DNA of 64,000 nt from an uncultured delta proteobacterium (GCA_963840855.1 CAWJBB010000085.1:101365-165364), one strand, 5' to 3'; counted from the stretch's first letter, positions 94 through 34,216 are shown. The notes: generated by a model from the letters alone, not told the origin. Numbers and translations are program-made.

Positions 94-163
94 AGGATTG
101 AATTGAATTCTCCATCGACTCAATCCTGTGAGATTTGTCCGTTGCGTCGTTCAGTTCAATCCT
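94..163 (+). repeat. 70-bp imperfect palindrome, module-boundary site copy 1 (full)
   Basis: AGGATTGAATTGAA (94-107) vs TTCAGTTCAATCCT (150-163): 13/14 inverted match; about 60/70 identical to 7437-7506. Confidence 0.9.
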
Positions 164-255
164 GCGGGAACTTTGCGATGGTCTGGCCGCGATAAGCGGC
201 CGTTCGTTAGGGAGATAACCCGCCGCCCTGGCGGCTTTTGTCGGGAAACGAAACG

Positions 256-284
256 TTGACAAATTGGGGTAGCTGGTGGATATT
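256..284 (+). promoter_or_regulatory. sigma70-type promoter (Pc-like) upstream of attI-like site
   Basis: TTGACA-N17-GATATT with TG before the -10; conserved at 34344-34373. Confidence 0.6.
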
Positions 285-339
285 GCAGCCGATTTGGATT
301 TCATTGTCGAGGCCGTCGCCGGAGATGAGCCGACCGGCC

Positions 340-377
340 TTTGTCGCTGCCTATGGCGGCTCACCTAATAGTTAGGC
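340..377 (+). other. attI-like recombination site
   Basis: GCTCACCTAATAGTTAGGC ends in a GTTRRRY core (371-377); homologous to 18488-18526. Confidence 0.6.
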
Positions 378-448
378 GAAATATTCATTTAAGGAAATGC
401 CTCGCCGGACATTTCCTCGAGTTACCCTGAAAACAGTAGGAGGCGTGT

Positions 449-1213
449 ATGTCTAAACTACGCCTCAACATGGCGCTCCGTTATTACGACCGCACTGCTG
501 CGTTGATCGATGGCACAGTTCAACCTGAAGGGATCGAGCTCAATTACGTTCAACTGAAGCCTTGGGAAACATTCTGGCGGGTGCTCCATCACTCGGAATT
601 TGACGTAACTGAGATTTCAACTTCAGGTTACGTCACCACACGCGAACGCATTCCGAAACCGTACATTGCTATCCCTGTTTTCCCCTCCAAAGTTTTCCGG
701 CATGCGGACATCTACATCAATGCGCGCTCAGGAATCCGGGAGCCTAAAGACCTCGAAGGAAAAAAGGTCGGCGGACCAGAGTATTCACAGACCGCTGCAG
801 TTTGGGCACGGGGAATCTTGCAGGATGAGTATGGTGTTGATCTGACGAAAGTATCCTGGTACCGAGGCGGGATTGAAGCTCCAGATCCGGTTGAACGAGT
901 AGAACTAAACCTTCCTCCCAGAATCCATCTTCAAGAAATCCCGCCTGGTAAAACAATCAATGGAATGCTTGAAGCCGGCGAGCTGGATGCAATGATTACC
1001 TCCCTGGCGCCATCCTCTTTTTTGAACGGCTCTCCCAATGTGTACCGTCTTTTCCCGAATTATCGAGATGTGGAAATGGCCTATTACAAGAAAACTGGAA
1101 TCTTTCCAATTATGCATACGATCGCCATCAGCGAGACATCTACGATCACAACCAGTGGATCGCCGCAAGTCTCATGAAGGCGTTTGAAGACGCCAAGAGG
1201 CATTGTTATCAAA
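449..1213 (+). pseudogene. 4,5-dihydroxyphthalate decarboxylase-like / ABC substrate-binding protein, frameshifted near 1130 and 3'-truncated
   Basis: YDRTAALIDGTVQPEG...EFDVTEIS...AIPVFPSKVFRH...IFPIMH; paralog of 47442-48533; homology continues in another frame to about 1213. Confidence 0.75.
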
Positions 1214-2149
1214 ATGGCGCACGGGGATCCTTCCGTTGCGCTTGTTTGTGCGATGCACCCGTCGGTCCTCGCTGTATGGCTGACCTCACCGGAAGTGCCT
1301 CCGCCATCTCAGGAGGCATGGGTCGCGCAACGCTCTGAGATTTTCCAAACGGTGAGAGAAGGCGCCTGGTGGGGAACCATCACATCAGAGCCTGGTAGTG
1401 GTGGCGACATGGCGAAGACGAAGGCGACTGCGCGCCCTGCGGGCAGCGACGGCCGTTATCTGATCACCGGCCAGAAGCAGTTCGGGAGCGGTTCCGGGAT
1501 AACCTCCTATATGATCACGACGGCTCTCCCAGAGGGAGAGACAACCCCCGACTTGTTCTTCCTCGATATGCGGGGCGTGCCCTGGGACGGCACAGCGGGG
1601 GTGACTCTAACAGCACCCTGGGATGGTCATGGAATGGTAGCCACTCAGAGTCACGCGATGGCGTTCGCGAACTTCCCTGGCCAGCGTAGTGCCCACCCGG
1701 GGAACCTTCTGAAAAGGATAGAAGCCACCGGCGGATTCATCCAATGTGCTTTCGCTTCGGTCATCGTTGGAGTCGTCGAGACCGCAGTCACGTCGGCGCG
1801 CCAGCACATGGTCAGGCGGCGCGATACTTTGCGCGCCTACGAGCGGGTCGAATGGTCGAGAGCCGAGATGGAAGGCTGGTTGATTGAGCAAGCGTACGAC
1901 GGCATGCTCCGCGCCGTCGAGGAGGGGAACGAAGGGCGGCGCCGGGCGGCGCAGGCGAAAACGGCTATCGCAGAATTGGCGGAGTCTGCCACGGGGCGGA
2001 TTTGTCGGGTGATCGGTGGAGGGACGTTCTCGCGATCCTCACCGTTCGGCTACTGGTACGAAGATGTTCGTGCGCTCGGCTTTCTGCGGCCGCCTTGGGG
2101 ACTGGTGTACGACAATCTCTTTGAGTGGTCGTGTGCCGAATCGGAATAG
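1214..2149 (+). CDS. Acyl-CoA dehydrogenase-family protein, probably 5'-truncated
   Basis: AHGDPSVALVCAMH, TSEPGSGGD, ITGQKQFGSGSG, ICRVIGGG, YEDVRALGF motifs. Confidence 0.75.
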   Translation: MAHGDPSVALVCAMHPSVLAVWLTSPEVPPPSQEAWVAQRSEIFQTVREGAWWGTITSEPGSGGDMAKTKATARPAGSDGRYLITGQKQFGSGSGITSYMITTALPEGETTPDLFFLDMRGVPWDGTAGVTLTAPWDGHGMVATQSHAMAFANFPGQRSAHPGNLLKRIEATGGFIQCAFASVIVGVVETAVTSARQHMVRRRDTLRAYERVEWSRAEMEGWLIEQAYDGMLRAVEEGNEGRRRAAQAKTAIAELAESATGRICRVIGGGTFSRSSPFGYWYEDVRALGFLRPPWGLVYDNLFEWSCAESE

Positions 2150-2179
2150 GGAGCACGCATCAGCCAGGCGCACCGTATC

Positions 2180-2252
2180 GCCCAACTCCACGCTCGACCG
2201 GTCCTCTGGCTCGCATTCGCTCGCCGCGGCCGGTCAACATGTGCGGTTGGGC
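2180..2252 (+). other. attC site (73 bp)
   Basis: GCCCAAC ... GACCGGT/GCCGGTC inner arms ... GTTGGGC. Confidence 0.85.
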
Positions 2253-2285
2253 CGCAGTATGGATGGTGAGCTATAGGAGGAGCAT

Positions 2286-3335
2286 ATGATCTATTCAGAA
2301 TGGAATCGGGTCAGCATCCTCTCGTTCTTGGTGTTGATGGGCTGCGCCGGAATCACCTCTCAAGCAGAACTCAAGCTCGTTACAGAGAGCTATATGATTC
2401 AATCGCATGACCCTGGCATTCAACTGTATGTCAGGAATAAGCGCCCCGAAGGCATGGCCCAATTCAGCGGGGAGAAGACGCTGCTCTATGTGCACGGTAC
2501 CACACAGGCAGCGAGCAGTACATTCGATTTGCCTTTGGATGGTTTCTCGTGGATGGATTACATCGCACGCCGCGGCTACGATGTTTATCTGGTTGATTTG
2601 CGGGGCTACGGTCGTTCCACGCGCCCCCTAGAGATGGAAAAGCCGGCCGCTGACAATCCACCCATCGTCAGAACCGATGTTGCAGTTAGGGACGTAGGGG
2701 CAGCTGTTGATCATATCCTGGTCCGTCGAGGCGTGACCAAACTCAATTTAATGGGCTGGTCTTGGGGTACCGCGATCATGGGCCGATACGCCACGCAAAA
2801 CAGCGACAAAGTCAATCGTCTGGTGCTCTATGCACCGGGCTGGATACGCAAGGCGCCGGCGAGCGGTAGCCCCGCAAGGCTTGGCGCATATCAAGCATGG
2901 ACGATGGAGCAAGCGAGGAGCCGTCTTCAAACTGGCGCGCCGGAAGAAAAGAAAAAAGACTTGATGCCGGCAGCTTGGTTCGAAGCGTGGTCTGCGGCCA
3001 CACTTGCCACCGACCCAGTCGGCGCCAAGCAGACACCGCCGGTTGTGCGCACTCCAAACGGCACTGTCCAAGATACTCAGGAGTACTGGTTTGCCGGGAA
3101 GCCTCTATGGGAGCCATCCGAAATTAAGGCACCTACCTTAATTGTGCTCGCAGAGTGGGATGACGTTACCCCGGTCACAGGGGCGCAGGCGGTCTTCGGC
3201 AAACTCAGCAACACCCACTATAAACGTCTTGTTCAAATCGGGGAGGGCACTCACGTAGTTTTCCTGGAGAAGAATCGCATCCATCTTTTTCGCGAAGTAC
3301 AGTTATTTCTTGATGAGCCACGCTCGGCAAACTAG
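2286..3335 (+). CDS. Exported alpha/beta hydrolase (possible lipoprotein)
   Basis: GGAGG RBS; signal with LMGC; YVHG, DLRGYGRS, nucleophile GWSWG, C-terminal GTH. Confidence 0.9.
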   Translation: MIYSEWNRVSILSFLVLMGCAGITSQAELKLVTESYMIQSHDPGIQLYVRNKRPEGMAQFSGEKTLLYVHGTTQAASSTFDLPLDGFSWMDYIARRGYDVYLVDLRGYGRSTRPLEMEKPAADNPPIVRTDVAVRDVGAAVDHILVRRGVTKLNLMGWSWGTAIMGRYATQNSDKVNRLVLYAPGWIRKAPASGSPARLGAYQAWTMEQARSRLQTGAPEEKKKDLMPAAWFEAWSAATLATDPVGAKQTPPVVRTPNGTVQDTQEYWFAGKPLWEPSEIKAPTLIVLAEWDDVTPVTGAQAVFGKLSNTHYKRLVQIGEGTHVVFLEKNRIHLFREVQLFLDEPRSAN

Positions 3336-3548
3336 GCTGCCGATCATTTCCAACACCTGTGCACCTAATTCCGGTAGTTCATCGCGCAAGGAAAAAGACC
3401 TTATTACGGCGCGAATAGATAGACCATTTTTGGTGCTCACGGTCTCGCTTCCAAAGTGACGCTAGTCTCTACCTCCTAAGGCTGGGATTTTCATGTGATT
3501 CCGGCACCTTGGCCGCCAATACATTACGTTGTTTGGGATTGGTTTGAC

Positions 3549-3567
3549 GCGTCGTTCAGTTCAATCT
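3549..3567 (+). repeat. Module-boundary site copy 2 (right arm; left arm degenerate)
   Basis: GCGTCGTTCAGTTCAATCT. Confidence 0.8.
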
Positions 3568-3913
3568 CAGGCTAAAAATCTGGTTTTTCCACTCGATGAA
3601 TACTTTTCGCCTTCTGTCGTAAATGGCACTTTTCTCTGCTACCTTCCGCGTAATGTGCAAATGGTGTCTGTAATGAAAAAAGCTGGTGTCTCGTCAATCC
3701 TGTTCGTAGTGATCCTACTTGCTGTTGCGGTCATAGCCGAGGCGCAGCAGACGAGGAAAGTTGACCGATTTCACGGAACGTACCCACCCAATTTCAACGA
3801 AGGGACCCACCTGATTTCAAGGAAGGGACCCACCCAATTTCAGGTGGTCCCCTTCGTTTCTGAGCGAGCCGACGAACGATGCTACCTTGGCCAACTGGAG
3901 GAGGATCCAGTTA

Positions 3914-5431
3914 ATGGCCAAAGAAAGGACCAGCGTTCGTATGCGAGCTCAAATCAAAACCCTGTCCGAACAGGGGCACTCCGTTCGCCGTATTGCCCGG
4001 ATACTTCGGCTTTCGCGCAGGACGGTGCGGAAGTTTTTGGAGCCCACCGCAGAGCCGCCCAGTGAGAGCGGTGGTTGGGTTGAGACGGTTGACTGGGAGT
4101 ATGTCCGCCAGGAAGTCTATGGCAAAGGGACCACGGTCAAGCAGATCCAGCGGGAGGTGGCCCCCGAGACAGGGTATGTAAAGTTTTGGCGTCAGTTTCG
4201 GGAAAAGGTTAGTGTGCAAGCCTCACCCGATCAAGTGACTATCCGGCTTCATCACAAGCCTGCGGAAAAAACCCAGATCGATTTTTCAGACGGTCTGTTT
4301 ATCACCGAGCGAGGGACGGGAAACAAGACACTGACCCAGTTTTTCTTAGGGGTTCTGCCCTTCAGCTCGTATACCTTCGGGGAATTCGTTCTAGATCAGA
4401 AGCTTTCCACCTTCATCGGGGTCCAGCAGCGCATGTTCGCCTACTTTGGTGGGATAACCCCCTACGTAGTGGTGGACAATCTCAAGAGCGGTGTCCACAA
4501 GGCCGATCTGTACGACCCCGATGTAAATCCCACCTACTGTGATTTTGCCAATCACATGGGCTTTGCGGTACTGCCGGCCAGACCCTACAAGGCCCGGGAC
4601 AAGGGCTCTGGGGAATGCCACATCGGAGTGATCCAAAGAGGGTTTTTCCAGGAGGTCCGTAACCGGGTCTTCTATTCTCTCCAAGATCTCAATCAAACCC
4701 TCAGGGAATATCTTCATCGGTTGAACCGCGAGGTGATGAAAGACTACGGGGTGAGCCGCAACCAGCGCTTCGAGCAAGAGAAAAAGCAATTAAAGGCCCT
4801 GCCACCCTCTCCCTTCGAGTTAAGCGAGTGGCGCCAGGCTAAAGTCCATCCCGACTGCCATATCCAAGTGGAGAAAAACTTCTACTCGGTCCCCTTTGTC
4901 TACGTCAGCCAAAGGGTCCGGGTCAGGCTCACCGAGAAAATTGTGGAAGTGTTTAGTGAGGACAGCCAGCCCCTTACCGCTCACACCAGACTGATGGGGA
5001 TCGGACAGTTCTCCACCTATGATTTCCATTATCCCGAAGCCAAGCTGAGCGTGGCGCGCTTTGAAGTCCGTCACGCTCAAGAACAGGCCAAAAAGCTTGG
5101 CCCCCATGTCGAGAAGTTACTCGATGATCTGCTCTCAGGCCAACATCCCTTGCGCCATCTAAGACGGGTCCAAGGAATCTTGCGGCTTGCCAAACGCTAT
5201 CCCATCACGGCTGAAGCTTTGGACCATGCATGCCAGCGGGCGATTGTCTTCAACAAGACACGGCTCGCCTACATCAAAGACTGCGCCCTTTACTTTGTTA
5301 GCCACGGCCAAAGACCCACGCTTCTTCCCCCGCAGAGAAAGCTGGATACCGTGCATCTACACCAATACGCTGCCAACTCGGGCTCAGATTCTGAACTGTC
5401 GCTGCCGTCGGTGGAGGAGGAACTGCTATGA
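3914..5431 (+). CDS. istA: IS21 transposase IstA
   Basis: N-terminal HTH, QIDFS, VVVDNLKSGV, PYKARDKGSGE, KVHPDCHIQVEKNFYSVP; GGAGG RBS. Confidence 0.95.
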   Translation: MAKERTSVRMRAQIKTLSEQGHSVRRIARILRLSRRTVRKFLEPTAEPPSESGGWVETVDWEYVRQEVYGKGTTVKQIQREVAPETGYVKFWRQFREKVSVQASPDQVTIRLHHKPAEKTQIDFSDGLFITERGTGNKTLTQFFLGVLPFSSYTFGEFVLDQKLSTFIGVQQRMFAYFGGITPYVVVDNLKSGVHKADLYDPDVNPTYCDFANHMGFAVLPARPYKARDKGSGECHIGVIQRGFFQEVRNRVFYSLQDLNQTLREYLHRLNREVMKDYGVSRNQRFEQEKKQLKALPPSPFELSEWRQAKVHPDCHIQVEKNFYSVPFVYVSQRVRVRLTEKIVEVFSEDSQPLTAHTRLMGIGQFSTYDFHYPEAKLSVARFEVRHAQEQAKKLGPHVEKLLDDLLSGQHPLRHLRRVQGILRLAKRYPITAEALDHACQRAIVFNKTRLAYIKDCALYFVSHGQRPTLLPPQRKLDTVHLHQYAANSGSDSELSLPSVEEELL

Positions 5432-5601
5432 GCACGAGCTTAAAATCCAGCCCCAACCTGATTTTTTACCTCCCAGAGCAGGGAGCAGAGAAAAACGACC
5501 TCCACAGAGGCCCTATAAACGACGATCTCGCTTTGACCCATACCTTGGGTACCCCCCAAAACAGCCGTTTCACCAGGAGGTCTCCCCGCCATGATGCTTG
5601 A
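5428..5601 (+). CDS. Putative 57-aa ORF between istA and istB
   Basis: ATGA overlap with the istA stop, GGAGGAGG RBS; MSTSLKSSPNLIFYLPEQ...RHDA*. Confidence 0.35.
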   Translation: MSTSLKSSPNLIFYLPEQGAEKNDLHRGPINDDLALTHTLGTPQNSRFTRRSPRHDA

Positions 5602-6346
5602 TCAAGTCAGAAACCTTTCCCACCAGATGCGCCTGTTTGGCATCCATGAAGCCTGCGAACGGCAAGCCCAGATCGCTTTGTCCCAGCAGCTCCATCCCCT
5701 GGAGTTTTTACGCTTGCTGCTCGAAGATGAACTGTTGTCGCGCAAAGACCGAACCGCCAAGGCGCTGGTGACCAAGGCCCGCTTTCGGTTCCGCGCCGAT
5801 CTGGAAGACTTAGATTTAGCGTTCCACAAGGATCTGACCAAAGCCAAGATCAAAGAACTCTGCGAGCTCGGCTTCCTCCATAACCTGGAGAATCTTTTGA
5901 TTTTAGGTAAAACCGGTTTGGGAAAGACTCATCTAGCGATAGCCTTGGGAAAACGGCTGTGCCAGGAAGGTCATCCCACGCAATTCTTGCCAGTCAACTT
6001 CCTGTTCGAGGAAATCCAAGCTGCCAGGGCCGCCGGCCGTTACCTCAACTACATCCGTAGTCTCATCAAGGCCAAGGTTTTGATCCTCGATGACCTGGGG
6101 TTAAGAAACTATACCCACGAGGAAGCCACTTCCCTGATGGACATCCTCGAAGAGCGCTACCGCAAGGCTCCCCTCATCGTTACTTCCCAGGTTGAGCCTC
6201 AGGGATGGCTCAAACTGTTTGAAGATCCGGTGATCGCCGAGGCCATCGTGGATCGGCTGATTCATCCATCTCAGAAAATCACCTTGAAAGGAGAGAAGTC
6301 CTATAGAGAAAAACTCACAGAGAAAAAATCAGGATTGAAAAACTAG
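5591..6346 (+). CDS. istB: IS21 helper ATPase IstB
   Basis: Walker A GKTGLGKT, Walker B LILDDLG, AIVDRL. Confidence 0.95.
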   Translation: MMLDQVRNLSHQMRLFGIHEACERQAQIALSQQLHPLEFLRLLLEDELLSRKDRTAKALVTKARFRFRADLEDLDLAFHKDLTKAKIKELCELGFLHNLENLLILGKTGLGKTHLAIALGKRLCQEGHPTQFLPVNFLFEEIQAARAAGRYLNYIRSLIKAKVLILDDLGLRNYTHEEATSLMDILEERYRKAPLIVTSQVEPQGWLKLFEDPVIAEAIVDRLIHPSQKITLKGEKSYREKLTEKKSGLKN

Positions 6347-7436
6347 GGAGGCTTATTGTAGACAGTCAAGATAACTTCGTCGCTTCGCTCCGCTGAATTG
6401 GGTGGTCCCCTTCGTTGAAATCGGGTGGGTCCCTTCAGTGAAATCGAACAGAAAGTCCCTCGGATAGGGTATTTATCGCCAAATGATCCTATTAGCGACT
6501 CCTCGCGCTCCGAGCCGATTCGGCTGGCTCTGCGCCAGTTGGGCTATATAGAAGGACAGAACATCGCCTTTGAGTACCGATATGCGGAAGGGAAAGTCGA
6601 TCGCTTCCCTGAGCTTGCAGCGGAGCTGGTTCGTCTCAAGGTTAATGTCATCGTGGTGGGAGGAGGGACCAGGATGGTCCGAGCGGCCAAGAATGCGACC
6701 AAGACGATTCCCATCGTTATGGTGGGCGCTGGGGTCGATCCAGTCGAGGCAGGCTTCGTTGAAAGCCTTGCCCGTCCCGGCGGCAACGTCACCGGCCTTA
6801 CAACCCTTTCCAGAGAGCTAGGCGGTAAGCGGCTCGAGCTGCTCAAAGAAGCCGTTCCCAAAGTGGCCCGTGTCGCGGTTCTCTACGACGCGACCAGTCC
6901 GGGCATTGCACTCGACATGAAAGAGGTTCTCCAAGTCGCGGCGCGTGCGCTGGGGTTGACTCTTCAGCCTTGGGAGGTACGCCGTGCAGACGATTTCGAG
7001 AAGGTATTCGCTGCGCTGAGTAAGGAGCGCCCGGATGGACTCTATATGGCCGCGGGCCGGCTAATGAGTGAAAATCAAAAACGGATCGTCGGCTTTGCGT
7101 TAAAGAACCGGTTACCGTCGACGTACCCGTACGTAGAAGCTGTAGATGTCGGTGGGCTCATGTACTACGGAGCGGACATCGCGGACAGCTACCGGCGCGT
7201 CGCATATTATGTAGACAAAATTCTGAAGGGAGCCAAGCCCGCCGACCTGCCGGTGGAGCAGCCGACGAAGTTTGAGCTGGTGATCAATCTCAAAACCGCC
7301 AAGCAGATTGGCCTCACGATTTCGCCGAATCTGCTCGCGAGGGCGGATCGGGTGATTCGGTGAAAACAGGTAAAAGCACTGGACATCAATTCGTCGACGG
7401 GTCCCCGGATTCGCTCAGACGTTAACCCTTGACCCT

Positions 7437-7506
7437 CAGATTGAACTGAATTCGCCATCTAACAAATCCTCTGAGATTTGACCGTTGCGTCGTTCAGTTC
7501 AATCCT
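7437..7506 (+). repeat. Module-boundary site copy 3 (full, 70 bp)
   Basis: CAGATTGAACTGAATTCGCCATC...CAAATC-N6-GATTTG...CGTTGCGTCGTTCAGTTCAATCCT. Confidence 0.9.
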
Positions 7507-7614
7507 GAGCCGAAATTAGCCCTTTCCCCCTCGACAAATCCGGTTTCCCTTCTGCCGTAAATAATCGTTTCCGCAATTACCGCCTGCGTGATAGCATCCG
7601 TAACGAGGTGCGCA

Positions 7615-7797
7615 ATGAAGAAAGCTGCGCTGCCATCAATCCTTATTGCAGTGGTGTTACTTGCTCTTGGAGTGATAGCCGAAGCGCAGCAGACCGGGAA
7701 AGTCCCGCGGATTGGTTATTTAACGGGTGCCACGCCTGACGGGCAATCGGCCCGCATCGAAGCATTCCGGCAGGGCCTGCGCGAGCTTGGGTATATA
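7615..7797 (+). pseudogene. N-terminal fragment of ABC substrate-binding protein
   Basis: MKKAALPSIL...EAQQTGKVPRIGYL...RQGLRELGYI, then homology stops abruptly. Confidence 0.85.
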
Positions 7798-8146
7798 ATA
7801 CGGCAAGTACCGTCTTGGCCGATGGTGACGATGCCCGGCGGTTTGCGGCAATGTCTCGGGAGCGGATCAAACCATAACGGCGGTGGACTGCCGGGCCGAT
7901 ACTTCCGGCGCGTCGGTGAATCCCATTCTTACGGGCGGCGCTTCCAATTCGATATTGTCTTCGGCTCTCAGTTGCGGCAATGGCACATGGGCGGCGGGAA
8001 CGGTGAGCGGCACGCCGACGATAAGAACTTTTAGCGCCAATGGGGCCACTTGTTCCGTCACGCCCTGCACCGTCGATGCGGCGATTGCAACAGCAGGAGG
8101 CTCGGCCAGATATGCGATTATCCGGTTTACGATTTCGGGGCAATGA
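7798..8146 (+). pseudogene. C-terminal fragment of an unknown Gly/Thr/Cys-rich protein
   Basis: Protein-like frame AVCGNVSGADQTITAVDCRAD...[11 protein letters not shown], coupled (ATGA) to the next gene, no start. Confidence 0.45.
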
Positions 8147-9240
8147 AGATGAAAACTTATTTACTTGCGATCCTGTTGTTTCTTTTTTCTATTTCTCCGG
8201 CAAAAGCAACTGTCTTATCCGATGCCGCCGCGGCGCTCGCCGTCGGCTCCTGGGCCGAGATTAGCCTGACAACCGGGTGCAAGGCGGCGCTGTTACAGCC
8301 CGGCACGGACGGCAATATCATCTCCTATGCCGCACAGTTTGTTTGGGACTCGGTTCGCAAGCGCGGCTACTTTGTCGGCAACGATCATATAGATAGCGTG
8401 ATGACTCAGGACCAGAGATTTGTCTATTACGACGAGGCGACAAACTGTTGGGATAATCTTCCTGCCGGTTGGTCCAATCCCGGGGTTACTGATCACGCCT
8501 ATTACCATAATGCCATCGACACTTCCGAGGGATACTTCTATCGCCGCCAGGGCAAAGACACTCAGGTCATTGCCCGCTTCGACATCGACGGCCACACATG
8601 GTTATCGGACCTGCCTAATAATAGCCAACTCTCGTTCACGCAATGTTGCGGCGGCTTGAGCTATTTTCGCGAGGCGGGGGGGTTGTTCTGGATTCAGGGC
8701 GATGGCGGCCCCGGTGGCGCTGGCGCGTGCGGCGGGACGAACTGTGGGCGCCTAACGTACTTCAGCGAATCGACAAACGGGTGGATTACGGTGCAGTCCA
8801 ATATCCCGATGGCGGCGCAGCCGGTGTTTATGGCGTATAGCGGCGTCCACCGGATTCTCGTCTTTGGCGATAATGCTGGACATTTCTGGAAAATGGATCA
8901 GAACCGCACATTGACTCAACTCGCAAGCCCGCTCTCCTCTAGCGTCGATTTTTACGACGGTACGGGCGCTATGGGGGTGATGGTTGACGATCCCGTCAGC
9001 GGGGATTTTTTGTGGCTCGATGCTTCGGATCGAGTTTTCCGAAAATACAATGTGCTTACCGACACTTGGAGCACTCAGTCCTCTACGGGCAAGCCGACGC
9101 TCACGAACTTAACCATCATGGCGGCGCCGATCACCAATCACGGCGTTATCATGTACGTCTACTGCGCGATCACTAACTGCCACGTCTATTTGTACAAACA
9201 CGGTACAATTCCGTTTTGTAAAGGCAAGAAATGCAGATGA
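8143..9240 (+). CDS. Secreted hypothetical protein, possible beta-propeller
   Basis: Signal peptide [22 protein letters not shown]; repeated YD/FD-x(3-4)-W strands ([24 protein letters not shown]). Confidence 0.7.
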
Positions 9241-9350
9241 CCGACGGGGCGATCGACTGGCTCTGCGTGCCCTCCTTCGACTCGCCGAGCGTCTTCAGCA
9301 GCCTGCTCGACCGGGAAGCCGGGTTCTTCCGCTTCGCGCCGTTCGGGATG
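9237..9350 (+). pseudogene. Short internal fragment of a glycoside hydrolase family 15 (trehalase-like) gene
   Basis: [33 protein letters not shown] is the characteristic GH15 N-terminal motif. Confidence 0.7.
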
Positions 9351-9682
9351 CCCTTGCAGGGTCACCCATTAGCAGGCAGGTCAAGAAGCACAGACGTTTC
9401 GATAGGAATTCTTCTTGTTCCCTTTTTTCAACTTGCCCCCATGCGATCGGGCGTATTTAACACCGCCTCCTACAAGTTGGATGGTAAGACGCTGACGATC
9501 ACGCAGGAACTCAACCAGACCGGGCCGGTAGCGAATCCGACAACGTGGAAGCTGACGCGAATCGAATGATGTATGCGAGATCTTGACGGCGAACAAGCTC
9601 AGGCTGTTTGTTGATCCGAAGCGGGCATACGCATAACACGAGACTCATGCGATGTTTCGTCTTGACGGTCTATCGTTGGATT

Positions 9683-9757
9683 AGAGCCGGCGGCGGTCAG
9701 GTATGTTGGCAACGTCCGGCCACAGAACCGCCGCGGCTCAATCGCATTTTGTTAACT
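9683..9757 (+). other. Degenerate attC-like site
   Basis: GAGCCG-GCGGCGGT ... ACCGCCGC-GGCTC arms followed by GTTAACT; R'' box not recognisable. Confidence 0.45.
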
Positions 9758-9761
9758 CTGC

Positions 9762-9784
9762 GATTGAACTGAATTCTCCATCTA
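9762..9784 (+). repeat. Module-boundary site copy 4 (left half only)
   Basis: GATTGAACTGAATTCTCCATCTA. Confidence 0.85.
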
Positions 9785-9899
9785 TGTGATCCAGCCTGTA
9801 CACCAAGGGATATAACTGAGTCCGAGCTTCCGTCGGCGTAGAAATCTACGAATTGCGGAATAACGCAACTTTGGTTTAAAAGGGGTCAAGGACGATCTT

Positions 9900-10610
9900 A
9901 TGTGCGGCCGTTATACCTATTTTCCTCGTGAATTTTCCGACCTTCGCCTTACTTGGAATGTCGATGAAGTGTTCGGCTTAAAGCCCCGCTATAACATCGC
10001 TCCAACTCAAGAAGCGCCCGTGATCGTTCAAGCCGCGGGAAAACGAACCCTCGAGCTGTTCCGCTGGGGATTGATCCCATGGTGGGCCAAAGATCCGGCC
10101 ATCGGAAACAGGATGATCAACGCCCGCGCTGAAACGCTCGCCGAGAAACCGGCATTCAAGGACCTGTTAGGAAAGCGTCGCTGTCTCGTTCTAGCGGACG
10201 GCTTTTACGAGTGGCGCAGGGAGGGAAAGCGGAAAATTCCTATGCGTTTTAAGCTCAAGTCTGATGAGCCGTTTGCGTTCGCCGGCCTATGGGATTCGTG
10301 GAAGCAACCGGACGGACGCCTTCTGCGCACGTACACGATTGTGACGACGGAGCCCAACGATGTGCTGCGCCCGATCCACAATCGGATGCCCGTGATGCTA
10401 ACCAATGACGATGCGCGAAGATGGCTTGCTGTTGACCAGATTAGCCACGCCCTCAGTTTGTTGAAGCCTTACCCCGCGGATGCTATGGAAGGCTACGACG
10501 TACCACCGCTCGTGAATGATCCTCGAAACGATTCGCCGGAATGTGTGGGGCCAGTTGAAGGATTGAACGCCGATGATGGAACGATACAAGGGCTATTGGA
10601 TTTCCGGTGA
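9900..10610 (+). CDS. SOS response-associated peptidase (SRAP/YedK family)
   Basis: MCGRY start, RYNIAPTQ, WGLIP, INARAET, RCLVLADGFYEW, HNRMPV. Confidence 0.95.
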   Translation: MCGRYTYFPREFSDLRLTWNVDEVFGLKPRYNIAPTQEAPVIVQAAGKRTLELFRWGLIPWWAKDPAIGNRMINARAETLAEKPAFKDLLGKRRCLVLADGFYEWRREGKRKIPMRFKLKSDEPFAFAGLWDSWKQPDGRLLRTYTIVTTEPNDVLRPIHNRMPVMLTNDDARRWLAVDQISHALSLLKPYPADAMEGYDVPPLVNDPRNDSPECVGPVEGLNADDGTIQGLLDFR

Positions 10611-10824
10611 CGCTATCCCTGGCCCGCCGTATACTCGCTATTGGGAAACGCTCGGGACGGTTCTCAAAGACGGCCGCAAGGGCTCGGTTGTCGAAGTCAC
10701 GCGGCTTCAGGATCCCGGCATCAAGTTCGAATTCGACTTGGCGGGATTCGCCGAGATTTACGGGATGGCATTCGCCGAGATCTACGTCGACCATTGTCTG
10801 CCGCAAGGGAGCGGCCCCACGTAA
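10576..10824 (+). CDS. Small hypothetical protein
   Basis: Protein-like composition (MERYKGYWISG...AEIYVDHCL); overlaps the SRAP tail. Confidence 0.55.
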   Translation: MERYKGYWISGDAIPGPPYTRYWETLGTVLKDGRKGSVVEVTRLQDPGIKFEFDLAGFAEIYGMAFAEIYVDHCLPQGSGPT

Positions 10825-11195
10825 TCGCATTTCTGATTGTCCCAGCAAAGCCGTGGCGGCTTATTTGGATTACTGGGGTCGTGTTGGCGCTGGTCTTGAC
10901 CGTTGTTTTGGCGATCGGTTGATGCAGACGTATTGGAATGGCTTACCAATGTCAAGCGGGGGGTCGCATAAATCCTCCGAACGTTTGAGATTTCAATCAC
11001 AGAAAACGCAGCCATGTGCCAGGAAGGAGTTGTCTGGACATTCGCACGAACGCGGCATGAATACTTCGATGAGCGGTTAACTCACGACGCTGACCCGCGT
11101 CGGAACGGAATCGTTAGGTGAGACCCGGCTAGGGCGTGGAACGGACCTGCAGCCGTGAGAAAGAGAAAGTGAGTAAATCAGATTTACCAGGCACG

Positions 11196-11831
11196 CTAGA
11201 TTTTCGGAATCCGTAACGTTTTGCTGATCATCACGGTTCCAGACAGAGCGAATAGCAAGACCAGCGGATGGAAGTCCCAGGGGCCTAATGTCCAGATGCC
11301 CCAATAAAGGTTCTCATCGAGCCGACCCGCCCAGCCAGCGTGCGCCAGCACACCGACCAGAAGCACACTTGTAGGTATCGGTGTACCTTCGTAATAGGGA
11401 ACTTTGTCCTTGCCTTTCGCGAGGGCCTCAGCGGTGATGTTATAGCGGGCCAACCGACTCACTCCGCAGCAAACGAAGTAAATAAGCACTATCCAGTCCC
11501 AGCCACCACGCAACCCGGCGGCGAATCCAATTGCCGCGGGCACGACCCCGAATGAGATGATGTCGGCGAGTGAATCCAGCTCGCGCCCAAGCGCCGAGTG
11601 AGTATGTCGTTGCCGTGCCACACGCCCATCGAAGACATCGAATATTAACGCCGCCGGCACCAAGGCTGTGGCTACGAAGAAGTGGGTCAGGGACTGGCTG
11701 CCCACGTAAGTCATGGCGCAGAAAACGCCCGCCATGCCGCACGCTGCATTGGCCAGAGTGAAAAAGTCGGCCAAATGAAACTCGCGGATCATCGAGAAGT
11801 GTTTGGGATAGTCGGCTGAGGAGCGCATCAT
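11196..11831 (-). CDS. pssA: CDP-alcohol phosphatidyltransferase (phosphatidylserine synthase-like)
   Basis: DVFDGRVAR...GRELDSLADIISFG, RLARYN, YEGTPIP. Confidence 0.85.
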   Translation of the reverse strand: MMRSSADYPKHFSMIREFHLADFFTLANAACGMAGVFCAMTYVGSQSLTHFFVATALVPAALIFDVFDGRVARQRHTHSALGRELDSLADIISFGVVPAAIGFAAGLRGGWDWIVLIYFVCCGVSRLARYNITAEALAKGKDKVPYYEGTPIPTSVLLVGVLAHAGWAGRLDENLYWGIWTLGPWDFHPLVLLFALSGTVMISKTLRIPKI

Positions 11832-11893
11832 TTCTACAGTATAAAACGATGCACGATGAACGAGAAGCGTAGACAGATTTATTTCTTCGCACC

Positions 11894-12112
11894 CTAACTT
11901 CGTTCGCCCTTGTCAAACCAAAGGCCGTGACACAACCGGCAGATGTCGAGATCCACGCCCTCATAAGTCACCGCTTCGAGTCTGCAGGGACACCTCGGGC
12001 ACCGAGCCTGCTTGTGACTTTCGACAGCGGAGCCAACTGGCGAGTGAGCGACCTCCCGATCGTCTTTACCAGCTTTCATTTCAGCTATTGGCTCGAAAAA
12101 GCTCGCCCTCAA
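11894..12112 (-). pseudogene. zf-TFIIB-like zinc-ribbon fragment
   Basis: CPRC...VDLDICRLCHGLWFDKGE then early stop. Confidence 0.55.
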
Positions 12113-12513
12113 AATTTACTTTCTTCTCACAGTCTCTGTCGAGAACGCCGAGGCGGGCTATCACAGTGGCGCCTCCGTGGCGTACACCCAAGAGAAAGGC
12201 ATCGACGCCTACATTGCCGACCGCAGCCATCGCCAGCGGGATCCTGCGTTTGATCGGTATAAACTGATGGCGGGAACAAAAGCGGAGTGATCTACGCTCG
12301 CAGGAATCTATCCTTGTGAAACTCGCGTGAAGGGCATTTGCCGCCCAAAAACGTCATGATTACGAGGTAGCCACAAATTCATGGGCGTGCCTAAGTCGAG
12401 GGCGTAGGGAGGAACCGACGGCACTGCGCTCGAAAGGGTATGGCCCTTCCCCGTCTCCATCATCAAAAATATCACTTGCTTGCCCGCGACCGTCCTGATA
12501 GGAACATGGTCCC

Positions 12514-12726
12514 TTGTCAATTCGACTATACAAAGACCGCCTTGTAGTTTGGACGGTCCTACACGATAAGCAAACCGACTCCTGGAAGCCTGCAATAACG
12601 GTTTCGTGGACGGTTGATCGCAAATACAAATTTCATCGATTCAACGGACTGCCTCAAACTTCGCACGCTGCCGCGCTGGCTCTAGGAAAACAGCTGGCCG
12701 AGGCCTGGGTGGACAAGGAACAATAG
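12514..12726 (+). CDS. Small hypothetical protein
   Basis: RLYKDRLVV...LGKQLAEAWVDKEQ; start uncertain. Confidence 0.5.
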   Translation: MSIRLYKDRLVVWTVLHDKQTDSWKPAITVSWTVDRKYKFHRFNGLPQTSHAAALALGKQLAEAWVDKEQ

Positions 12727-12930
12727 GGAGGGAATCGAGAATAACTGACAGGCATTTGCAGAGCGCCACTTAACATCAACACCAGATCAACGTCCATGCA
12801 TGCATCGCTGACGCATTTACGACGGGGTTTCGCTTGAAGCGCAGCCGCGCGCGTAGATTGACTTTCGCCTACGATTTGATTTACTACAGAGCGTACTTGA
12901 GACGGTCTGACAACGCTAGAGTTTACACCA

Positions 12931-12996
12931 ATGTGCGGCCGTTACACCTATTTTCCCCGTAAATTTTCCGACCTCCGCCTTACCTGGAAAGTCGAT
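12931..12996 (+). pseudogene. 5' fragment of a second SRAP gene
   Basis: MCGRYTYFPRKFSDLRLTWKVD nearly identical to the first 22 codons at 9900. Confidence 0.85.
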
Positions 12997-13221
12997 TCAA
13001 TCTCGATCTTAAGGCCCCCCGTTAATATTGCCGGCTGTAGCGGGTCAATTGTCGAAGTCGAATCCCTCATACCCAAACCGTTCGAATTAGACGAAGTCGT
13101 GAGCATTGTTGGTCTCACCCGGCATGACTCCACAGCGCTGGGCGGAGGGCTTCGGTTCGGCGCCCTTGCCTTATTGGTCGGTAATAACATGGCGGGGTAA
13201 CGAAAAGAGGACAATCTACCT

Positions 13222-13527: not shown

Positions 13528-13615
13528 CGTCAAGGACGAAAGGGGGGCCTACCTTAACCGGCGCCCCTCGCGCTCTCACCTACGAACCACCCGCTTGATT
13601 CCGTTCAGCGAGGCA

Positions 13616-13864: not shown

Positions 13865-13947
13865 TGAGACGCCTTTAGTGCACGATAGCCATGAGTACTG
13901 AAGATAATTTCAGGTTTCAAGCCTGAGCCTATACCCATTTGCTCGGT

Positions 13948-14295: not shown

Positions 14296-14310
14296 GGATA
14301 ACTACGAAAA

Positions 14311-20459: not shown

Positions 20460-20521
20460 AAACTAATCCTGCTGGCTTCGAACAATAATGAAGAGGTTCA
20501 GGATAATTGCCGGCAGAAATG

Positions 20522-25934: not shown

Positions 25935-26087
25935 GTGGACAAGATCTTGAAAGGCCGCAAGCCCGCCGATCTCCCGGTAGAGCAGCCGAAGACATTTGAG
26001 TTCATCATCAATCTGAAAGCCGCCAAGCAGATCGGCCTGACGATTCCGCCGGAGGTGCTCGCCCGAGCGAATAGGCTGATCAAGTGA
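25935..26087 (+). pseudogene. C-terminal fragment of ABC substrate-binding protein (ABC_sub_bind-type)
   Basis: [50 protein letters not shown]. Confidence 0.9.
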
Positions 26088-26111
26088 TGGAAGAAAACCA
26101 AGCAGCATGCC

Positions 26112-26131
26112 AGGATTGAACTCAAATCTCC
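26112..26131 (+). repeat. Module-boundary site copy 9 (left half)
   Basis: AGGATTGAACTCAAATCTCC, 24 bp after the SBP stop, as at 94. Confidence 0.7.
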
Positions 26132-26277
26132 TACCGTTTAATCCTCCCATTCAGACGACGAAGCTGTGCGCGAGTTATTTTGTCGAAACCAAGCTCTGCA
26201 AGCTCGGCTAACCCTTGCGGAGCCTGAAATAACGCTGAGGCTTTGCTCCGCCGTGATGCAAACCGAGCCGTAAATTT

Positions 26278-29689: not shown

Positions 29690-29730
29690 GCATAGATACT
29701 TGTAATTTCCGGCCGAAATTTTAGATCAAG

Positions 29731-29872
29731 GAAATGAAGCTCCTCGGAGCAAAGCTCCGAGGTATCTTGCGAAATTCTCCGAAGCCCTTCCACCCTCCTT
29801 CGCCAAGGCTACGGAGGGTTCTCCTCACCTTCATCCTCGCAGCAAGCTGCGAGGTATTCGGCGAAGGAGAAT
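29731..29872 (+). mobile_element. ~140-bp hairpin MITE-like element, copy 2
   Basis: Near-identical to 20320-20459 with a variant first hairpin CCTCGGAGCAAAGCTCCGAGG. Confidence 0.8.
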
Positions 29873-29887
29873 CAAAAACGCTGTGAC

Positions 29888-31317: not shown

Positions 31318-32472
31318 ATGGCCGCAATGGACATTGCTGAGATAGCGCCGGACGTTCCAGCAGGGCTTGAGAGCGGGCTCAGGAACTACTGGTATCCCAT
31401 CTTGCTCTCGGAGGACCTAACGCAAGGAAGCCCGGTGGCAATCAAATGTCTCGGCGAGAGTCTGGTTGTCTGGCGTGACGCGGAGGGCCACCCCGGCGTG
31501 CTTTTTGATCGATGTCCGCACCGGGCTGCGAAGCTCTCCGCGGGCCGCGTCCTGGAAGGGCAAATTCAGTGCGCGTTTCATGGATTACGCTTTGACAAGA
31601 ACGGGCAATGCACGCTCATCCCCTGGGAGCCCGAGGAGAGCCCGACCCGAAAGGAGGTTTGCGCTCAGGCCTACCCCGCCAAAGAGCTGGCAGGTTATAT
31701 CTGGGCCTATCTCGGCGATGCGACGCATTTTCCGCCGCCGCCCCTCGAACAGGAGGTGCCAGAAGAGATCTTGCGCGAACAAGAGTATCGCTGTTTCAGG
31801 ATGCCGACGGAGATTTGGGACGCCAACTGGCTGCTAACGGTAGATGGTGGAGACGGCTTTCATGCAGTGATCCTGCATTCCGACACCCAGGCGGTGGCGG
31901 ACAAAACCTGGCAAGGCGGAAAAGTTCAACGCCCTTCCGCGGATCTGGCGGAGCGCCGAGTCAAGATCGTCGAGACAACCTACGGCGTCCGCGGTATCGC
32001 CGTCGATCAGCAGGGCAAGCCGATCCATCACGGCCACTTATTGGCTGTGAAGGGCGACCGGTTCATTCTGCCGTGCATCACCACCAACGTCATCAGCCCG
32101 GTACCGGGCGCCGAACCGTACGTCGCTCGTCTGTGGCAATTTCCCCTCGACGCGCATCGAACCATCGTGCAGCGCTTCGTGGTCCAGCGCGCCACCGGAG
32201 CCGAGGCCCAAGAGCGCTGGGAAAAACTCTTTTATGATGTCGTCAGGCCGCGGCTGGAGGGAATCTCCCGCGAGGATGCGATGATCGCCTGCGCGCAGGG
32301 AGACCTCGTGACGGCGCGCAACCACGAGCACCTGTTCGAGCCGGACAAGAGTATGTATGAAGTCCGCCAGCGCATCAAAAAAGCATTTCTGGAACAGCGA
32401 GAGGAAAAACGCATTGCTCCCAGCCAAGAGTGCCTGGTCTGGCCGGTAGAGTCCCCGTCGGCCGCCGCGTAG
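31318..32472 (+). CDS. Rieske non-heme iron oxygenase (alpha3 type, VanA/CarAa-like)
   Basis: LRNYWYP, DRCPHR...CAFHG, DGFHAVILH. Confidence 0.9.
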   Translation: MAAMDIAEIAPDVPAGLESGLRNYWYPILLSEDLTQGSPVAIKCLGESLVVWRDAEGHPGVLFDRCPHRAAKLSAGRVLEGQIQCAFHGLRFDKNGQCTLIPWEPEESPTRKEVCAQAYPAKELAGYIWAYLGDATHFPPPPLEQEVPEEILREQEYRCFRMPTEIWDANWLLTVDGGDGFHAVILHSDTQAVADKTWQGGKVQRPSADLAERRVKIVETTYGVRGIAVDQQGKPIHHGHLLAVKGDRFILPCITTNVISPVPGAEPYVARLWQFPLDAHRTIVQRFVVQRATGAEAQERWEKLFYDVVRPRLEGISREDAMIACAQGDLVTARNHEHLFEPDKSMYEVRQRIKKAFLEQREEKRIAPSQECLVWPVESPSAAA

Positions 32473-32548
32473 AAAAGAGTTTTCTACCGAGGCTATGGAA
32501 CCGTAAGGCTTTCTAATGCTTCGATCAGTTCAAGATTAGTGGAGCGAT

Positions 32549-33532
32549 ATGAAACGAAACCCGAAAGGACCCGCAAAGCTCGCGCTCCTCACTGTTTTGC
32601 TCGGCACCATTTCTGGGTCTCAGACCAGCCTTGCCCAGGAACAGCTTGAGATCCATAACCCGTCCTTCGATATCAGCGTCATCACGCTGTTCGTCGCGCA
32701 GGAGAAGGGTTATTTTCGTGAGGAGGGACTGGACCCGTTGTTTATTCTTGCGACTCCCGGCGTTGGCATTAACGGCCTTATCGCCGGCAGCTTCGACTTC
32801 AGCGCCGCAGGCGGCTCGGCGTCGACGGCCATCGCCCGCAACGTCCCTCTGAAGGTCCTGCTCATCCATACCTTCAAGCCGGGCTTCTGGATCTTCGCCC
32901 GGGAGAATCTCAACCCGTCGCAGCTAAAGGGCAAGAAGATTGCCGTTTCGACCTTTGGGTCGCTGGTCCACACACTCGCCAGGCTTGGGCTCAAAAAGCT
33001 GGGCGTGGAGGCCGACAAAGAGGTCGCCATGATCGCCGCCGGCACCGACGATGTTCGTTTCTTGGCCTTAAAGAGCGGCGCCGTGGATGCGGCTGTCTTC
33101 AACACTCCCACAAGCATAAGAGCCCGTAGGGAGGGATTGAAAGAGATAGTCTTTCTCGGCAATGAGGTCTATGGCCTGAGCGGCGGCGTAGTCACCCATG
33201 CCAAGATGATCGAGACGCGGCCGGAAACAGTGCTAAAGTTCGTGACCGGCGCAGTGAAGGGGCTTAAATATTTCATAGCCAACCGTGAAGGCGTCATGCC
33301 GATATTGGTGAAATACATGAGGATGGATACAGAAAGGGTCAAGGAAGTCTATGACACGACGATTCAAACCTTCACTGCCGACGGCACGCGCGGGGAAGGT
33401 TTCATGCGCAGCGAAGCGCAGATTCAAGCCGCCGCTCTGGGCCTCAAGGAACTGCCGCCGCCGGAGCGTCCCTTTGACCTGAGCTTTGCCCGCAAAGCCA
33501 ACGAAAGACTCAAGAACTGGAAGCCGCAATAG
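32549..33532 (+). CDS. NitT/TauT-type ABC substrate-binding protein
   Basis: VAQEKGYFREEGLD, LKGKKIAVS, ALKSGAVDA. Confidence 0.9.
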   Translation: MKRNPKGPAKLALLTVLLGTISGSQTSLAQEQLEIHNPSFDISVITLFVAQEKGYFREEGLDPLFILATPGVGINGLIAGSFDFSAAGGSASTAIARNVPLKVLLIHTFKPGFWIFARENLNPSQLKGKKIAVSTFGSLVHTLARLGLKKLGVEADKEVAMIAAGTDDVRFLALKSGAVDAAVFNTPTSIRARREGLKEIVFLGNEVYGLSGGVVTHAKMIETRPETVLKFVTGAVKGLKYFIANREGVMPILVKYMRMDTERVKEVYDTTIQTFTADGTRGEGFMRSEAQIQAAALGLKELPPPERPFDLSFARKANERLKNWKPQ

Positions 33533-33542
33533 CTGCGAGGAT

Positions 33543-33590
33543 GTTCAAGGTTCAAAGTTCAACGTCGTCTCCCCACCTTGAACATTGAAC
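33543..33590. repeat. GTTCAA short-period inverted repeat (also 58190-58256, 62400-62453)
   Basis: GTTCAAGGTTCAAAGTTCAA...CCTTGAACATTGAAC. Confidence 0.65.
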
Positions 33591-33591
33591 G

Positions 33592-34216
33592 ATGACTAAC
33601 AAATCAACCAACATCAAGTTCCCTGACGATCGTTCAAAATCAAGCGCATTGCGTCTTGAGCCTGATGATGAATCGTACGATTTTGAAGAGTGGGAGATAG
33701 ACGCTCAATTGCGGGAGAAGGAAGATTATCCCGGCTTGGTAGAATACTGCAAACAAAGAGCCGAGCGATTGCCTGACGATCCATATGCCCAGTACTATGG
33801 GAGAGGCCTATGTTTTGAATGGGGAATATGAAAAGGCGATTGAGTTTCTCTCAGAACACCACCGGAGACACCCCGACAACCTCGACTTCCAGTATGTGAT
33901 TCTGGACGCCCTGTATGCTTTGGGCCAGACTGAGGATAATTTCGACTGGGCGCACAAACCGGTCATTCTGAGAATGTCCGCTGCGATTGTGGACGCCTGC
34001 TATGAATTCCTGAAATCGAAACGAAAGCCCCGCTCTGTCAGTGAACTCTACACCCGCTTTATTATGGAAGCCTATTTGCTCTTTAAAGAAGAAGACCTAT
34101 TGAAAGCATTGTCGGAGGACGGCAGGTTTGTCGTGGAGGCCCCCGATGCAGAGCGCTTCGCGAAGATTCGGCTGGCCGGCAAGCTGCGCACACGAGGAAG
34201 ATCAGTTCAATTGTGA
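33592..34216 (+). pseudogene. TPR-containing hypothetical protein split by a frameshift near 33795
   Basis: ...PDDPYAQYY / GEAYVLNGEYEKAIEFL is a TPR unit broken across two ORFs. Confidence 0.7.
34200..34211 (+). repeat. Module-boundary site remnant (right arm)
   Basis: GATCAGTTCAAT, identical to the copy 7 arm and in the same position relative to the attI-like platform. Confidence 0.55.

Follow-up and report, generated by a model that had tools for sequence, protein, structure and literature searches.

A repeated 70-base palindromic site between gene cassettes in Binatia, and an Xer-like recombinase gene nested within it

The repeat in the window

The stretch of DNA analysed here, called the window throughout, comprises 64,000 nt of contig C85 in the genome of an uncultured delta proteobacterium (the source genome, G000), and coordinates given without a contig are window positions. 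Pfam places in its first 26 kb a mixture of PF04392 (ABC_sub_bind) substrate-binding protein (SBP) genes and remnants of such genes, unrelated genes, an IS21 insertion and IS91 remnants. Among these stands a palindromic repeat of about 70 bases, which is real, and whose directly oriented copies stand between gene cassettes that measure from 0.6 to several kb. The subject of this report is that site, together with a family of Xer-like tyrosine recombinases, here named RecX, which may use it to move the cassettes.

Copies were located with a site profile (nhmmer, E <= 0.1) iterated from the window's four full copies, and those accepted in the window are the following:

94-166, + strand: full site (nhmmer 79.9 bits, model 2-74), with left arm AGGATTGAATTGAA, inner TTCTCC, centre, inner GCGTCG and right arm TTCAGTTCAATCC
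3533-3571, + strand: right half only (nhmmer 29.6 bits, model 36-74)
7439-7509, + strand: full site (nhmmer 70.6 bits)
9761-9795, + strand: left half only (nhmmer 19.6 bits, model 3-37); likeness stops past the internal ..ATCC motif
13941-13981, + strand: right half only (nhmmer 28.8 bits, model 33-73)
15668-15729, + strand: eroded full site with a degenerate left arm and an abutting IS91-type remnant (nhmmer 45.3 bits, model 11-72)
18243-18315, + strand: full site with a divergent centre (nhmmer 39.0 bits)
19034-19063, + strand: left half only (nhmmer 20.3 bits); the next segment begins right behind ..GGATCC
26108-26150, + strand: degenerate left half behind an SBP 3' remnant, the array's last copy, recognized by eye (12-mer match at 26114-26125; missed by the profile at E <= 0.1)

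The array itself starts 9 kb ahead of the window, at C85:92114 in the profile search of the source genome. A preliminary description of the window had listed ten copies in a single orientation; nine of these are present and all accepted copies lie on the + strand by nhmmer, but the tenth, a supposed right half at 34200-34211, is a mere 12-nt match within an open reading frame (ORF), lacks the GCGTCG flank and was rejected. The housekeeping half is free of copies, as described (none in 35-64 kb), and the architecture stands as well, with inverted outer arms of 13-14 bp, conserved non-complementary inner flanks and a variable centre. The AAC and GTT boxes that the description had thought missing are present in the arms (consensus GATTGAAC ... 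GTTCAGTTCAATC), and the attI-like platforms that it had placed beside some copies were not found. Matching to short words gave, for the right 24-mer with up to three mismatches, 4 matches versus 0 in 100 shuffles, for the left 23-mer 3 versus 0 expected, and for the arm 12-mer with up to one mismatch 10 versus 0.32 expected (none past 26125), counts that exclude chance as the source of the copies.

The site also differs, as had been proposed, from the repetitive extragenic palindromic (REP) elements of the window, whose REP-like family (D3/D7) is GC-rich and found in both orientations. Copies of this separate family (TCCTCGCAGCAAGCTGCGAGGTATTCGGCGAAGGAGAA) lie at 20330-20461, 29727-29876, 45278-45427 and 61961-62045, and thus extend into the housekeeping half.

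Arrays across the source genome and their association with SBP genes

The source genome is a 7.1-Mb assembly of 93 contigs (94% complete, 8% contamination). A profile scan of the whole genome, which the preliminary description had called for, returned 96 matches or, after the removal of two palindromic self-hits, 94 copies on 16 contigs, all on one strand within each contig. By profile coverage 50 are full sites, 29 left-only and 15 right-only, and their spacing is tight, with a median of 1545 nt and 38 of 78 spacings below 1.5 kb.

What the preliminary description had not brought out is how closely the site is linked to PF04392 SBP genes. Across the arrays of this genome the left half begins ~26 nt past an SBP paralog's stop codon, 90-110 nt separate the end of the right half from an SBP start codon, and the SBPs of the arrays are all co-oriented with the sites. 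The link is only a partial one: in the set of PF04392-like ORFs that reach 250 aa (59 in this genome), a site follows the stop in 20, precedes the start in 20 and does both in 13, leaving 39 with none after the stop; four tandem SBP arrays in two genomes of the same genus (G002 and G018) hold no site at all. The 28 full-length SBPs of the arrays share a median identity of only 53% as protein and 60% as DNA, while the columns of the site are 70-90% conserved, so that the site is constrained or homogenised and not a by-product of neutral duplication.

The commonest cassette in this genome is a PF04392 SBP gene with its own upstream region, a conserved stretch of ~110 nt, and the system has therefore probably fed the expansion of the SBP family. 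Another module has a match to TTGACA-17-GATATT, a predicted promoter; a promoter and terminator scan found nothing above chance at the sites themselves. A large cassette, consisting of an ORF of 1979 or 971 aa and one of 127 aa, is common to two of the genome's arrays at 95% identity, with full sites at both bounds (C85 region 7631-13950 and C41 region 8911-12206).

A recombinase gene nested in the site

The search for a co-occurring tyrosine recombinase, also suggested by the preliminary description, led to RecX (301 aa in public calls), the gene for which is enclosed, in related genomes, by the left and right halves of a single site. In G002, contig C23 carries two such units with an O-methyltransferase cassette between them; the first consists of a left half at 14805-14826, the RecX ORF at 14874-15797 and a right half at 15793-15824, and the second has the corresponding parts at 16964-16986, 17032-17955 and 17958-17984. 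The left halves are weak, and both ORFs encode 307 aa with Phage_integrase (114 bits) and SAM_1 N-terminal domains by Pfam. The same order is found in G003 (contig C8; two copies, of which one has no internal stop and the other a frameshift), on a contig labelled Pyrinomonadaceae, and in G041, a long-read metagenome-assembled genome (MAG), where it forms the second unit of a 21-kb array on contig C11 and RecX has one internal TGA. At complete loci the left half (arm AGGATTGAAYTGAA plus TTCTCC) lies 80-87 nt ahead of the RecX start codon, and the stop is followed at a distance of 8-10 nt by the right half (TG-NN-GCGTCG plus arm TTCAGTTCAATCC). Without its gene this unit is colinear with the ordinary 70-bp site, the two having TTCTCC, ..ATCCTGT and TG-NN-GCGTCG in common. 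The flanks of RecX are themselves palindromic.

These arrangements were counted over genome and metagenome contigs carrying RecX at 69% identity or more with enough flank, some of the loci being the same DNA from different samples. A right half stands just past the RecX stop at 35 of 42 loci, some of the misses being visibly degenerate, and a left half 40-140 nt upstream at 22 of 41. At least one site occurs at 52 of 85 loci, and all 81 of the sites at these loci are on the strand of RecX. None of eight more distant RecX-like genes, of 40-65% identity, had site halves; other flanks were present.

Against the XerC and XerD models RecX reaches ~200 bits (cut-offs 335 and 330, respectively) and against the archaeal XerA model 195 bits (cut-off 220); among solved structures E. 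coli XerD is nearest to it (E 2e-38). On the integron-integrase model TIGR02249 it reaches 65 bits versus a cut-off of 265, through its C-terminal 60 residues only, and BLASTP aligns just 37 residues between RecX and the integron integrase (IntI) of the source genome. Invariant columns over 14 aligned members point to a retained R-K-H-R-H-Y pattern of putative catalytic residues. In soil metagenomes the family forms more than 100 clusters at 60-100% identity, mostly on short contigs.

Three further features were seen around RecX and its kin. A conserved leader (L088 14840-14885, and most upstream flanks of RecX) could fold into a hairpin, CTCTCC-AAAAC..-GGAGAG, that would mask a candidate ribosome-binding site, GGAGAGGAGAA. 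The TTGAAC of the left arm, with TATTAT or TACATT 15-16 nt downstream, is a possible RecX promoter and could permit autoregulation. RecX-like genes of 51-56% identity (metagenome loci L152-L158) have a conserved downstream block of their own, AATTCTCT..TTGAC, followed by a palindrome, GGTGGTAGAATA ... TTCTACCACCC, and may represent a sister system with another site.

Structure and distribution of the site

In an alignment of 50 site copies from many genomes (A1), the arms and the inner flanks (left, TTCTCC; right, TG-NN-GCGTCG) hardly vary, and the centre differs among copies in both its sequence and its length. Of the cells of the 14-bp outer stem 88.0% are paired, versus 87.9% in shuffles, 221 of 500 shuffles being as high, and two variable arm positions showed no association, either within one site or within one cassette. 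Single-strand folds agree on the outer stem only, the interior differing from copy to copy. The arms are thus conserved as sequence and not as pairs, which fits recognition by a protein better than an RNA or terminator hairpin.

The right-arm motif, with up to one mismatch, was found in 16 of 41 related genomes (a tally that, like the others over these relatives, includes the unpublished G009) and its reversed control in none. G002, G003, G017 and G033, which all bear the motif, have RecX at more than 500 bits; with the pseudogene of the source genome counted, RecX is present in five relatives, four of them with a copy free of internal stops and all five with the motif, and in none of the 25 motif-less genomes. 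This co-occurrence is partly trivial, because RecX carries half a site, and the genomes, as kin, are not independent. An exact left 20-mer matched 74 stretches of the species collection, nearly all from MAGs titled Candidatus Binatia or 'uncultured delta proteobacterium', and sites at these loci are full, left-only or right-only, and co-oriented. Some short contigs with the 20-mer bear Acidobacteriota or Verrucomicrobia labels, possibly through errors of binning or labelling.

Breakpoints and cassette content

Near-identical segments of the source genome break at the edges of sites, which bears out the proposal that directly oriented copies bound modules. On contigs C69 and C85 a module copy is 96.3% and then 99.96% identical, and the 2352-nt stretch at 99.96% stops inside ...TTCAGTTCAATC of the right half, beyond which the contigs differ; a 3152-nt stretch shared by C46 and C75 at 99.3% identity stops at the same point of the right arm. 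In the C10/C27 pair identity stops where a left-only half ends. The segment that runs from 19064 onward has a 96.8% identical copy on C93 with no site ahead of it, while in the window a left-only half precedes it. The start of the module behind the window's first site is also the start of the module behind RecX and its right half in G002, and RecX loci that match each other at 93% identity or more at their 3' end form 19 pairs, of which 12 lose their likeness no more than 15 nt past ...TTCAAT and seven remain alike in the downstream DNA.

Both classes of breakpoint lie directly past (T)TCAATC(C), a motif that stands on the right arm's outer edge and recurs once within the site, and a left-only half looks like a full site from which the stretch between the two copies of the motif has been removed. 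The breakpoints fit site-specific exchange.

Cassettes need not carry SBPs. The array of G041, with at least 13 sites, holds only one SBP among cassettes for MgtC, SnoaL-like, GH65-HAD, methyltransferase, response regulator and TENA proteins and many ORFans, a variety which indicates that the site is not SBP-specific. A comparison of window positions 1-20000 with five genomes of the same genus (G001-G004 and G018) matched only SBP paralogs, IS pieces and site flanks and showed no orthologous array.

Genes and insertions between the sites of the window

The features between the sites, with functions from Pfam where given, are:

1-78, + strand: 3' end of a PF04392-type SBP gene that enters from before the window, its stop 16 nt ahead of the first site; repeat family D5 with 7286-7363 and 26010-26087; jackhmmer SBP match, C85 region ORF 15054-15329
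164-3532, + strand: three-gene module (ORF 449-1177; ORF 1184-2149, acyl-CoA dehydrogenase-like; ORF 2286-3335, alpha/beta hydrolase), duplicated on contig C69
3766-6446, + strand: IS21-family insertion with istA (3887-5431) and istB (5591-6346); Pfam Mu-transpos_C_2/HTH and IstB_IS21; inverted repeats I5, I6 and I11, tandem repeat D12
6425-7363, + strand: PF04392 SBP gene, 312 aa as called (ABC_sub_bind, 150.8 bits)
9796-13940, strand unassigned: cargo between a left half and a right half, with an SRAP peptidase (9900-10610), an ORF (10607-11080), a CDP-alcohol phosphatidyltransferase (11196-11831, - strand) and others
14311-15552, + strand: BenE-family transporter cassette (BenE, 190.8 bits)
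15727-16065, - strand: Y2_Tnp fragment, an IS91-type remnant
15841-16035 and 17946-18140: direct repeat D1 from the repeat analysis
18564-18968, + strand: GFA-family cassette gene (GFA, 109.3 bits)
19097-19981: SBP_bac_8 gene in the segment from 19064 onward, following the left half at 19034-19063
25935-26087, + strand: orphan 3' remnant of an SBP gene (D4, 77% identical to 7211-7363)

The IS21 insertion splits an SBP cassette that begins after the right half at 3533-3571 and whose SBP 5' end (3672-3761) resembles 7614-7703 (D11). The ends of the insertion (3766-3842 and 6396-6446) carry three tandem 23-nt repeats, GATTTCA.GGAAGGGACCCACC, which are probably multiple transposase-binding sites. 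Just beyond the array, at 36379-37569, lies a gene with a Tle1-like phospholipase domain of the type VI secretion system (178 bits).

An integron-like cassette site and its alternatives

We propose that the ~70-bp element is an integron-like cassette (att-type) site of RecX, a reading from sequence to which we give a probability of roughly 0.55. The action of RecX on the site, that is binding, position of cleavage, excision and integration, we infer as follows. RecX would bind the two near-invariant inverted arms and exchange strands at or beside (T)TCAATC(C); recombination between directly repeated sites would then excise a cassette as a circle with one site, which could re-enter at any other site. 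Repeated excision and re-entry would build and reshuffle arrays as in integrons, by means of a different enzyme and a different site.

Several observations weigh against this proposal. The source genome, which has the largest array, contains only a decayed RecX on contig C93 (60% identical, with internal stops, the left half kept and the right half lost), besides other Xer-like genes on C46 and C77; with RecX a pseudogene, its 94-site array would be frozen, or would depend on a copy that the assembly lacks, or would now change through homologous recombination from site to site. At 19 of the 41 RecX loci there is no left half, and these share another upstream sequence. The motif is carried in low numbers by 11 of 36 relatives without RecX, many of them fragmented MAGs. 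Arms that stand 44 bp apart do not make a canonical tyrosine-recombinase core, the interior folds inconsistently, and no compensatory change backs a hairpin, within the site or within the cassette. The SBP intergenic region of the source genome is conserved as a whole, down to the ATG, which leaves room for a regulatory role, and homologous recombination at the best-conserved 13-25 nt would equally give such breakpoints. No direct recombination event was seen, neither circles nor a precise presence/absence pair within one population, in a search that covered Logan contigs only and in which site joints had short sides of 20-41 nt. Three Logan joints of 90% likeness (3566 to 19064, 18292 to 144 and 124 to 18301), whose shorter sides measure 24-41 nt, possibly come from paralogs or other organisms and were not used as evidence.

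The site might instead be a derivative of the miniature inverted-repeat transposable element (MITE) kind, non-autonomous and descended from a RecX-encoding element of ~1.05 kb with terminal inverted repeats; the moving unit would then run from left arm to right arm, and the arrays would stem from co-amplification with SBP genes or from targeting of SBP flanks. Such a derivative would match the colinearity of the full site with the RecX unit minus its gene and the 13-14-bp inverted ends, the arms that flank RecX in several genomes being terminal inverted repeats in common with the autonomous form, and the short metagenome contigs of RecX are as found with repeated mobile DNA. We nevertheless consider it unlikely, given one orientation per contig, a position always at cassette junctions among co-oriented genes, and breakpoints of duplicated segments that part the site from its neighbour without the site having moved alone; the flanks read hold no target-site duplication, although these were not systematically searched, and to our knowledge no bacterial IS family has both terminal inverted repeats and a tyrosine recombinase. 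Behind SBP genes such as malE and hisJ, REP hairpins stabilise the upstream mRNA, and the site could likewise be a cis element of the SBP paralogs, a 3' stabiliser or terminator hairpin combined with an upstream operator, that was copied by tandem duplication and made mosaic by homologous recombination, RecX being a selfish inserter in the palindrome. The set distances from SBP stops (~26 nt) and starts (90-110 nt) and the conservation of the entire intergenic region would suit this explanation, but it is distinctly unlikely in view of an array in G041 that is almost SBP-free, of the 39 SBP ORFs and four tandem SBP arrays that do without the site, and of left-only and right-only halves that keep their sequence where a hairpin is impossible. 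Nor are there compensatory changes, a T-run behind the stem, or an Rfam match at gathering score anywhere in the 64-kb window, and the nested recombinase would be left unexplained.

That the sites are attC sites of a true integron, with arrays that are clusters of attC sites lacking integrases (CALINs) and are served in trans by the genome's own IntI, is improbable. The source genome does encode an integron integrase (C1:45987-46880; TIGR02249, 442 bits versus the cut-off of 265), and the arms, ATTGAAC and GTTCAAT, are one mismatch each from the integron core-site consensus RYYYAAC/GTTRRRY. The outer stem, unpaired flanks and variable centre recall the R box, unpaired spacer and variable structure of attC, and in G002 intI lies 5 kb from the RecX copies. 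Yet no sites adjoin intI on C1 or the intI fragment on C21, in G041 and G003 the array and intI occupy separate contigs, and the 41 relatives divide into six with both intI over the cut-off and the motif, five with intI only and ten with the motif only (G003 and G029 among the last having a partial intI below the cut-off). The recombinase nested in the site is RecX, at 65 bits on the integron model. Set beside the traits of attC sites (R''/R' cores, L boxes with extrahelical bases, structure rather than sequence conserved), the present sites give a mixed picture, with arms close to the cores but a conserved sequence and an inconsistent interior fold. In other MAGs intI sits at contig ends. IntI was rejected as the acting enzyme, having no physical or phyletic link to the sites in the genomes compared, and the higher-order array with nested integron arrays envisaged in the preliminary description gives way to the single kind of array seen. 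Its other suggestion, a recognition site for an HUH or IS91-type transposase, is met by IS91-type copies that are insertions into or beside the site. On C35 an IS91-type element with an integrase and a Y2 transposase truncates the site at the end of GCGTCGTT, in keeping with the GTTC target preference of IS91. The broader possibility of an IS91 end, or of an ordinary REP or bacterial interspersed mosaic element (BIME) spread by a REP-associated tyrosine transposase (RAYT, Y1 HUH), agrees with a palindromic, intergenic position 3' of genes, with ten PF01797 matches in the source genome and with IS91 remnants that touch two of the window's sites. It is highly improbable, being already contradicted by orientation and context: all 94 copies keep one strand per contig, in clustered arrays, no Y1 gene is flanked by sites (the nearest, C85:56170-56496, is 36 kb ahead of the array), and the true REP-like family of the window is of the different kind described above.

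We suggest, tentatively and at somewhat less than even odds, that soil Binatia have, next to integrons and independent of them, a further gene-capture platform, in which RecX, nested in its own 70-bp site, moves promoter-bearing cassettes. It would have built arrays of up to some 94 sites, in one genome spread across more than 200 kb, and would be the driving force in the growth of an orphan SBP family. The system is apparently undescribed; those parts of the literature on Binatota integrons, Binatia mobile elements, PF04392, cassette arrays of tyrosine recombinases or Xer, and MITEs that were available to us contain no description of RecX with a 70-bp site. If true, cassette capture would have evolved more than once, with another recombinase lineage, an enzyme gene inside the site and cassettes that have their own promoters. 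It would also open a way to study how accessory genomes change in abundant uncultured soil bacteria and account for the growth of large orphan SBP families. RecX and the 70-bp site together are compact enough for direct testing and might yield a new recombination tool.

Two observations concern the surroundings of intI. In the source genome (C1:42-47 kb; L003 6200-11013) intI (442 bits) stands beside a run of three or four further tyrosine recombinase genes of the opposite strand, which resembles a recombinase-trio element, and no cassette array adjoins. Low-complexity palindromic blocks of GTTCAA/GTTCCAA units lie near intI and a lexA/imuA/imuB-like cluster in both the source genome and G002 (L003 4518-4658; L004 9738-9775, 11854-11940 and 13158-13276; L088 5376-5534).

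Comparison with known systems

The proposed RecX system does not appear to belong to the integrons, the Xer/dif or pdif modules, the REP/RAYT elements or the ordinary MITEs. With integrons it shares co-oriented, imperfectly palindromic sites of ~70 bp between mostly co-oriented, unrelated cassettes with many ORFans, an associated tyrosine recombinase, exchange points at one edge of the site, and arrays that also occur without a working recombinase, as in CALINs. Unlike in integrons, the recombinase is Xer-like and not IntI, and its gene lies inside the site in the direction of the cassettes, whereas IntI is divergent at attI; no attI or Pc platform was seen, and the arrays of G041 and G002 showed no conserved head structure. 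The arms, of 13-14 bp, are also nearly invariant in sequence across genera, and the commonest cassettes of the source genome bring their own conserved upstream region, whereas integron cassettes are promoterless.

The pdif sites of Acinetobacter, which are 28 bp long (11-6-11), alternate in orientation, lie on plasmids and use the host XerC/XerD. There too Xer-type recombination sites bound exchangeable gene modules, but the sites described here are 70 bp, all direct and chromosomal, with a dedicated recombinase that scores below the XerC and XerD cut-offs. Invertible segments of the Hin type, Hin being a serine recombinase, resemble the RecX unit in having a recombinase gene between two inverted repeat arms; they differ in that the present sites occur by the dozen and in direct orientation, and no inverted variant was seen (81 of 81 sites co-oriented with RecX, although consensus assemblies could hide a minority form).

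Pairs of IS and MITE likewise have a long enzyme-bearing form and a short gene-free form with the same inverted ends, but the present sites keep a single orientation, are fixed between cassettes, show no target duplication in the flanks read and go with a tyrosine recombinase rather than a DDE enzyme. REP and BIME elements with their RAYT are intergenic palindromes 3' of genes, often behind SBP genes, as the present sites are; the latter have no linked Y1 transposase, a single orientation and no compensatory variation, and they are placed as the boundaries of cassettes.

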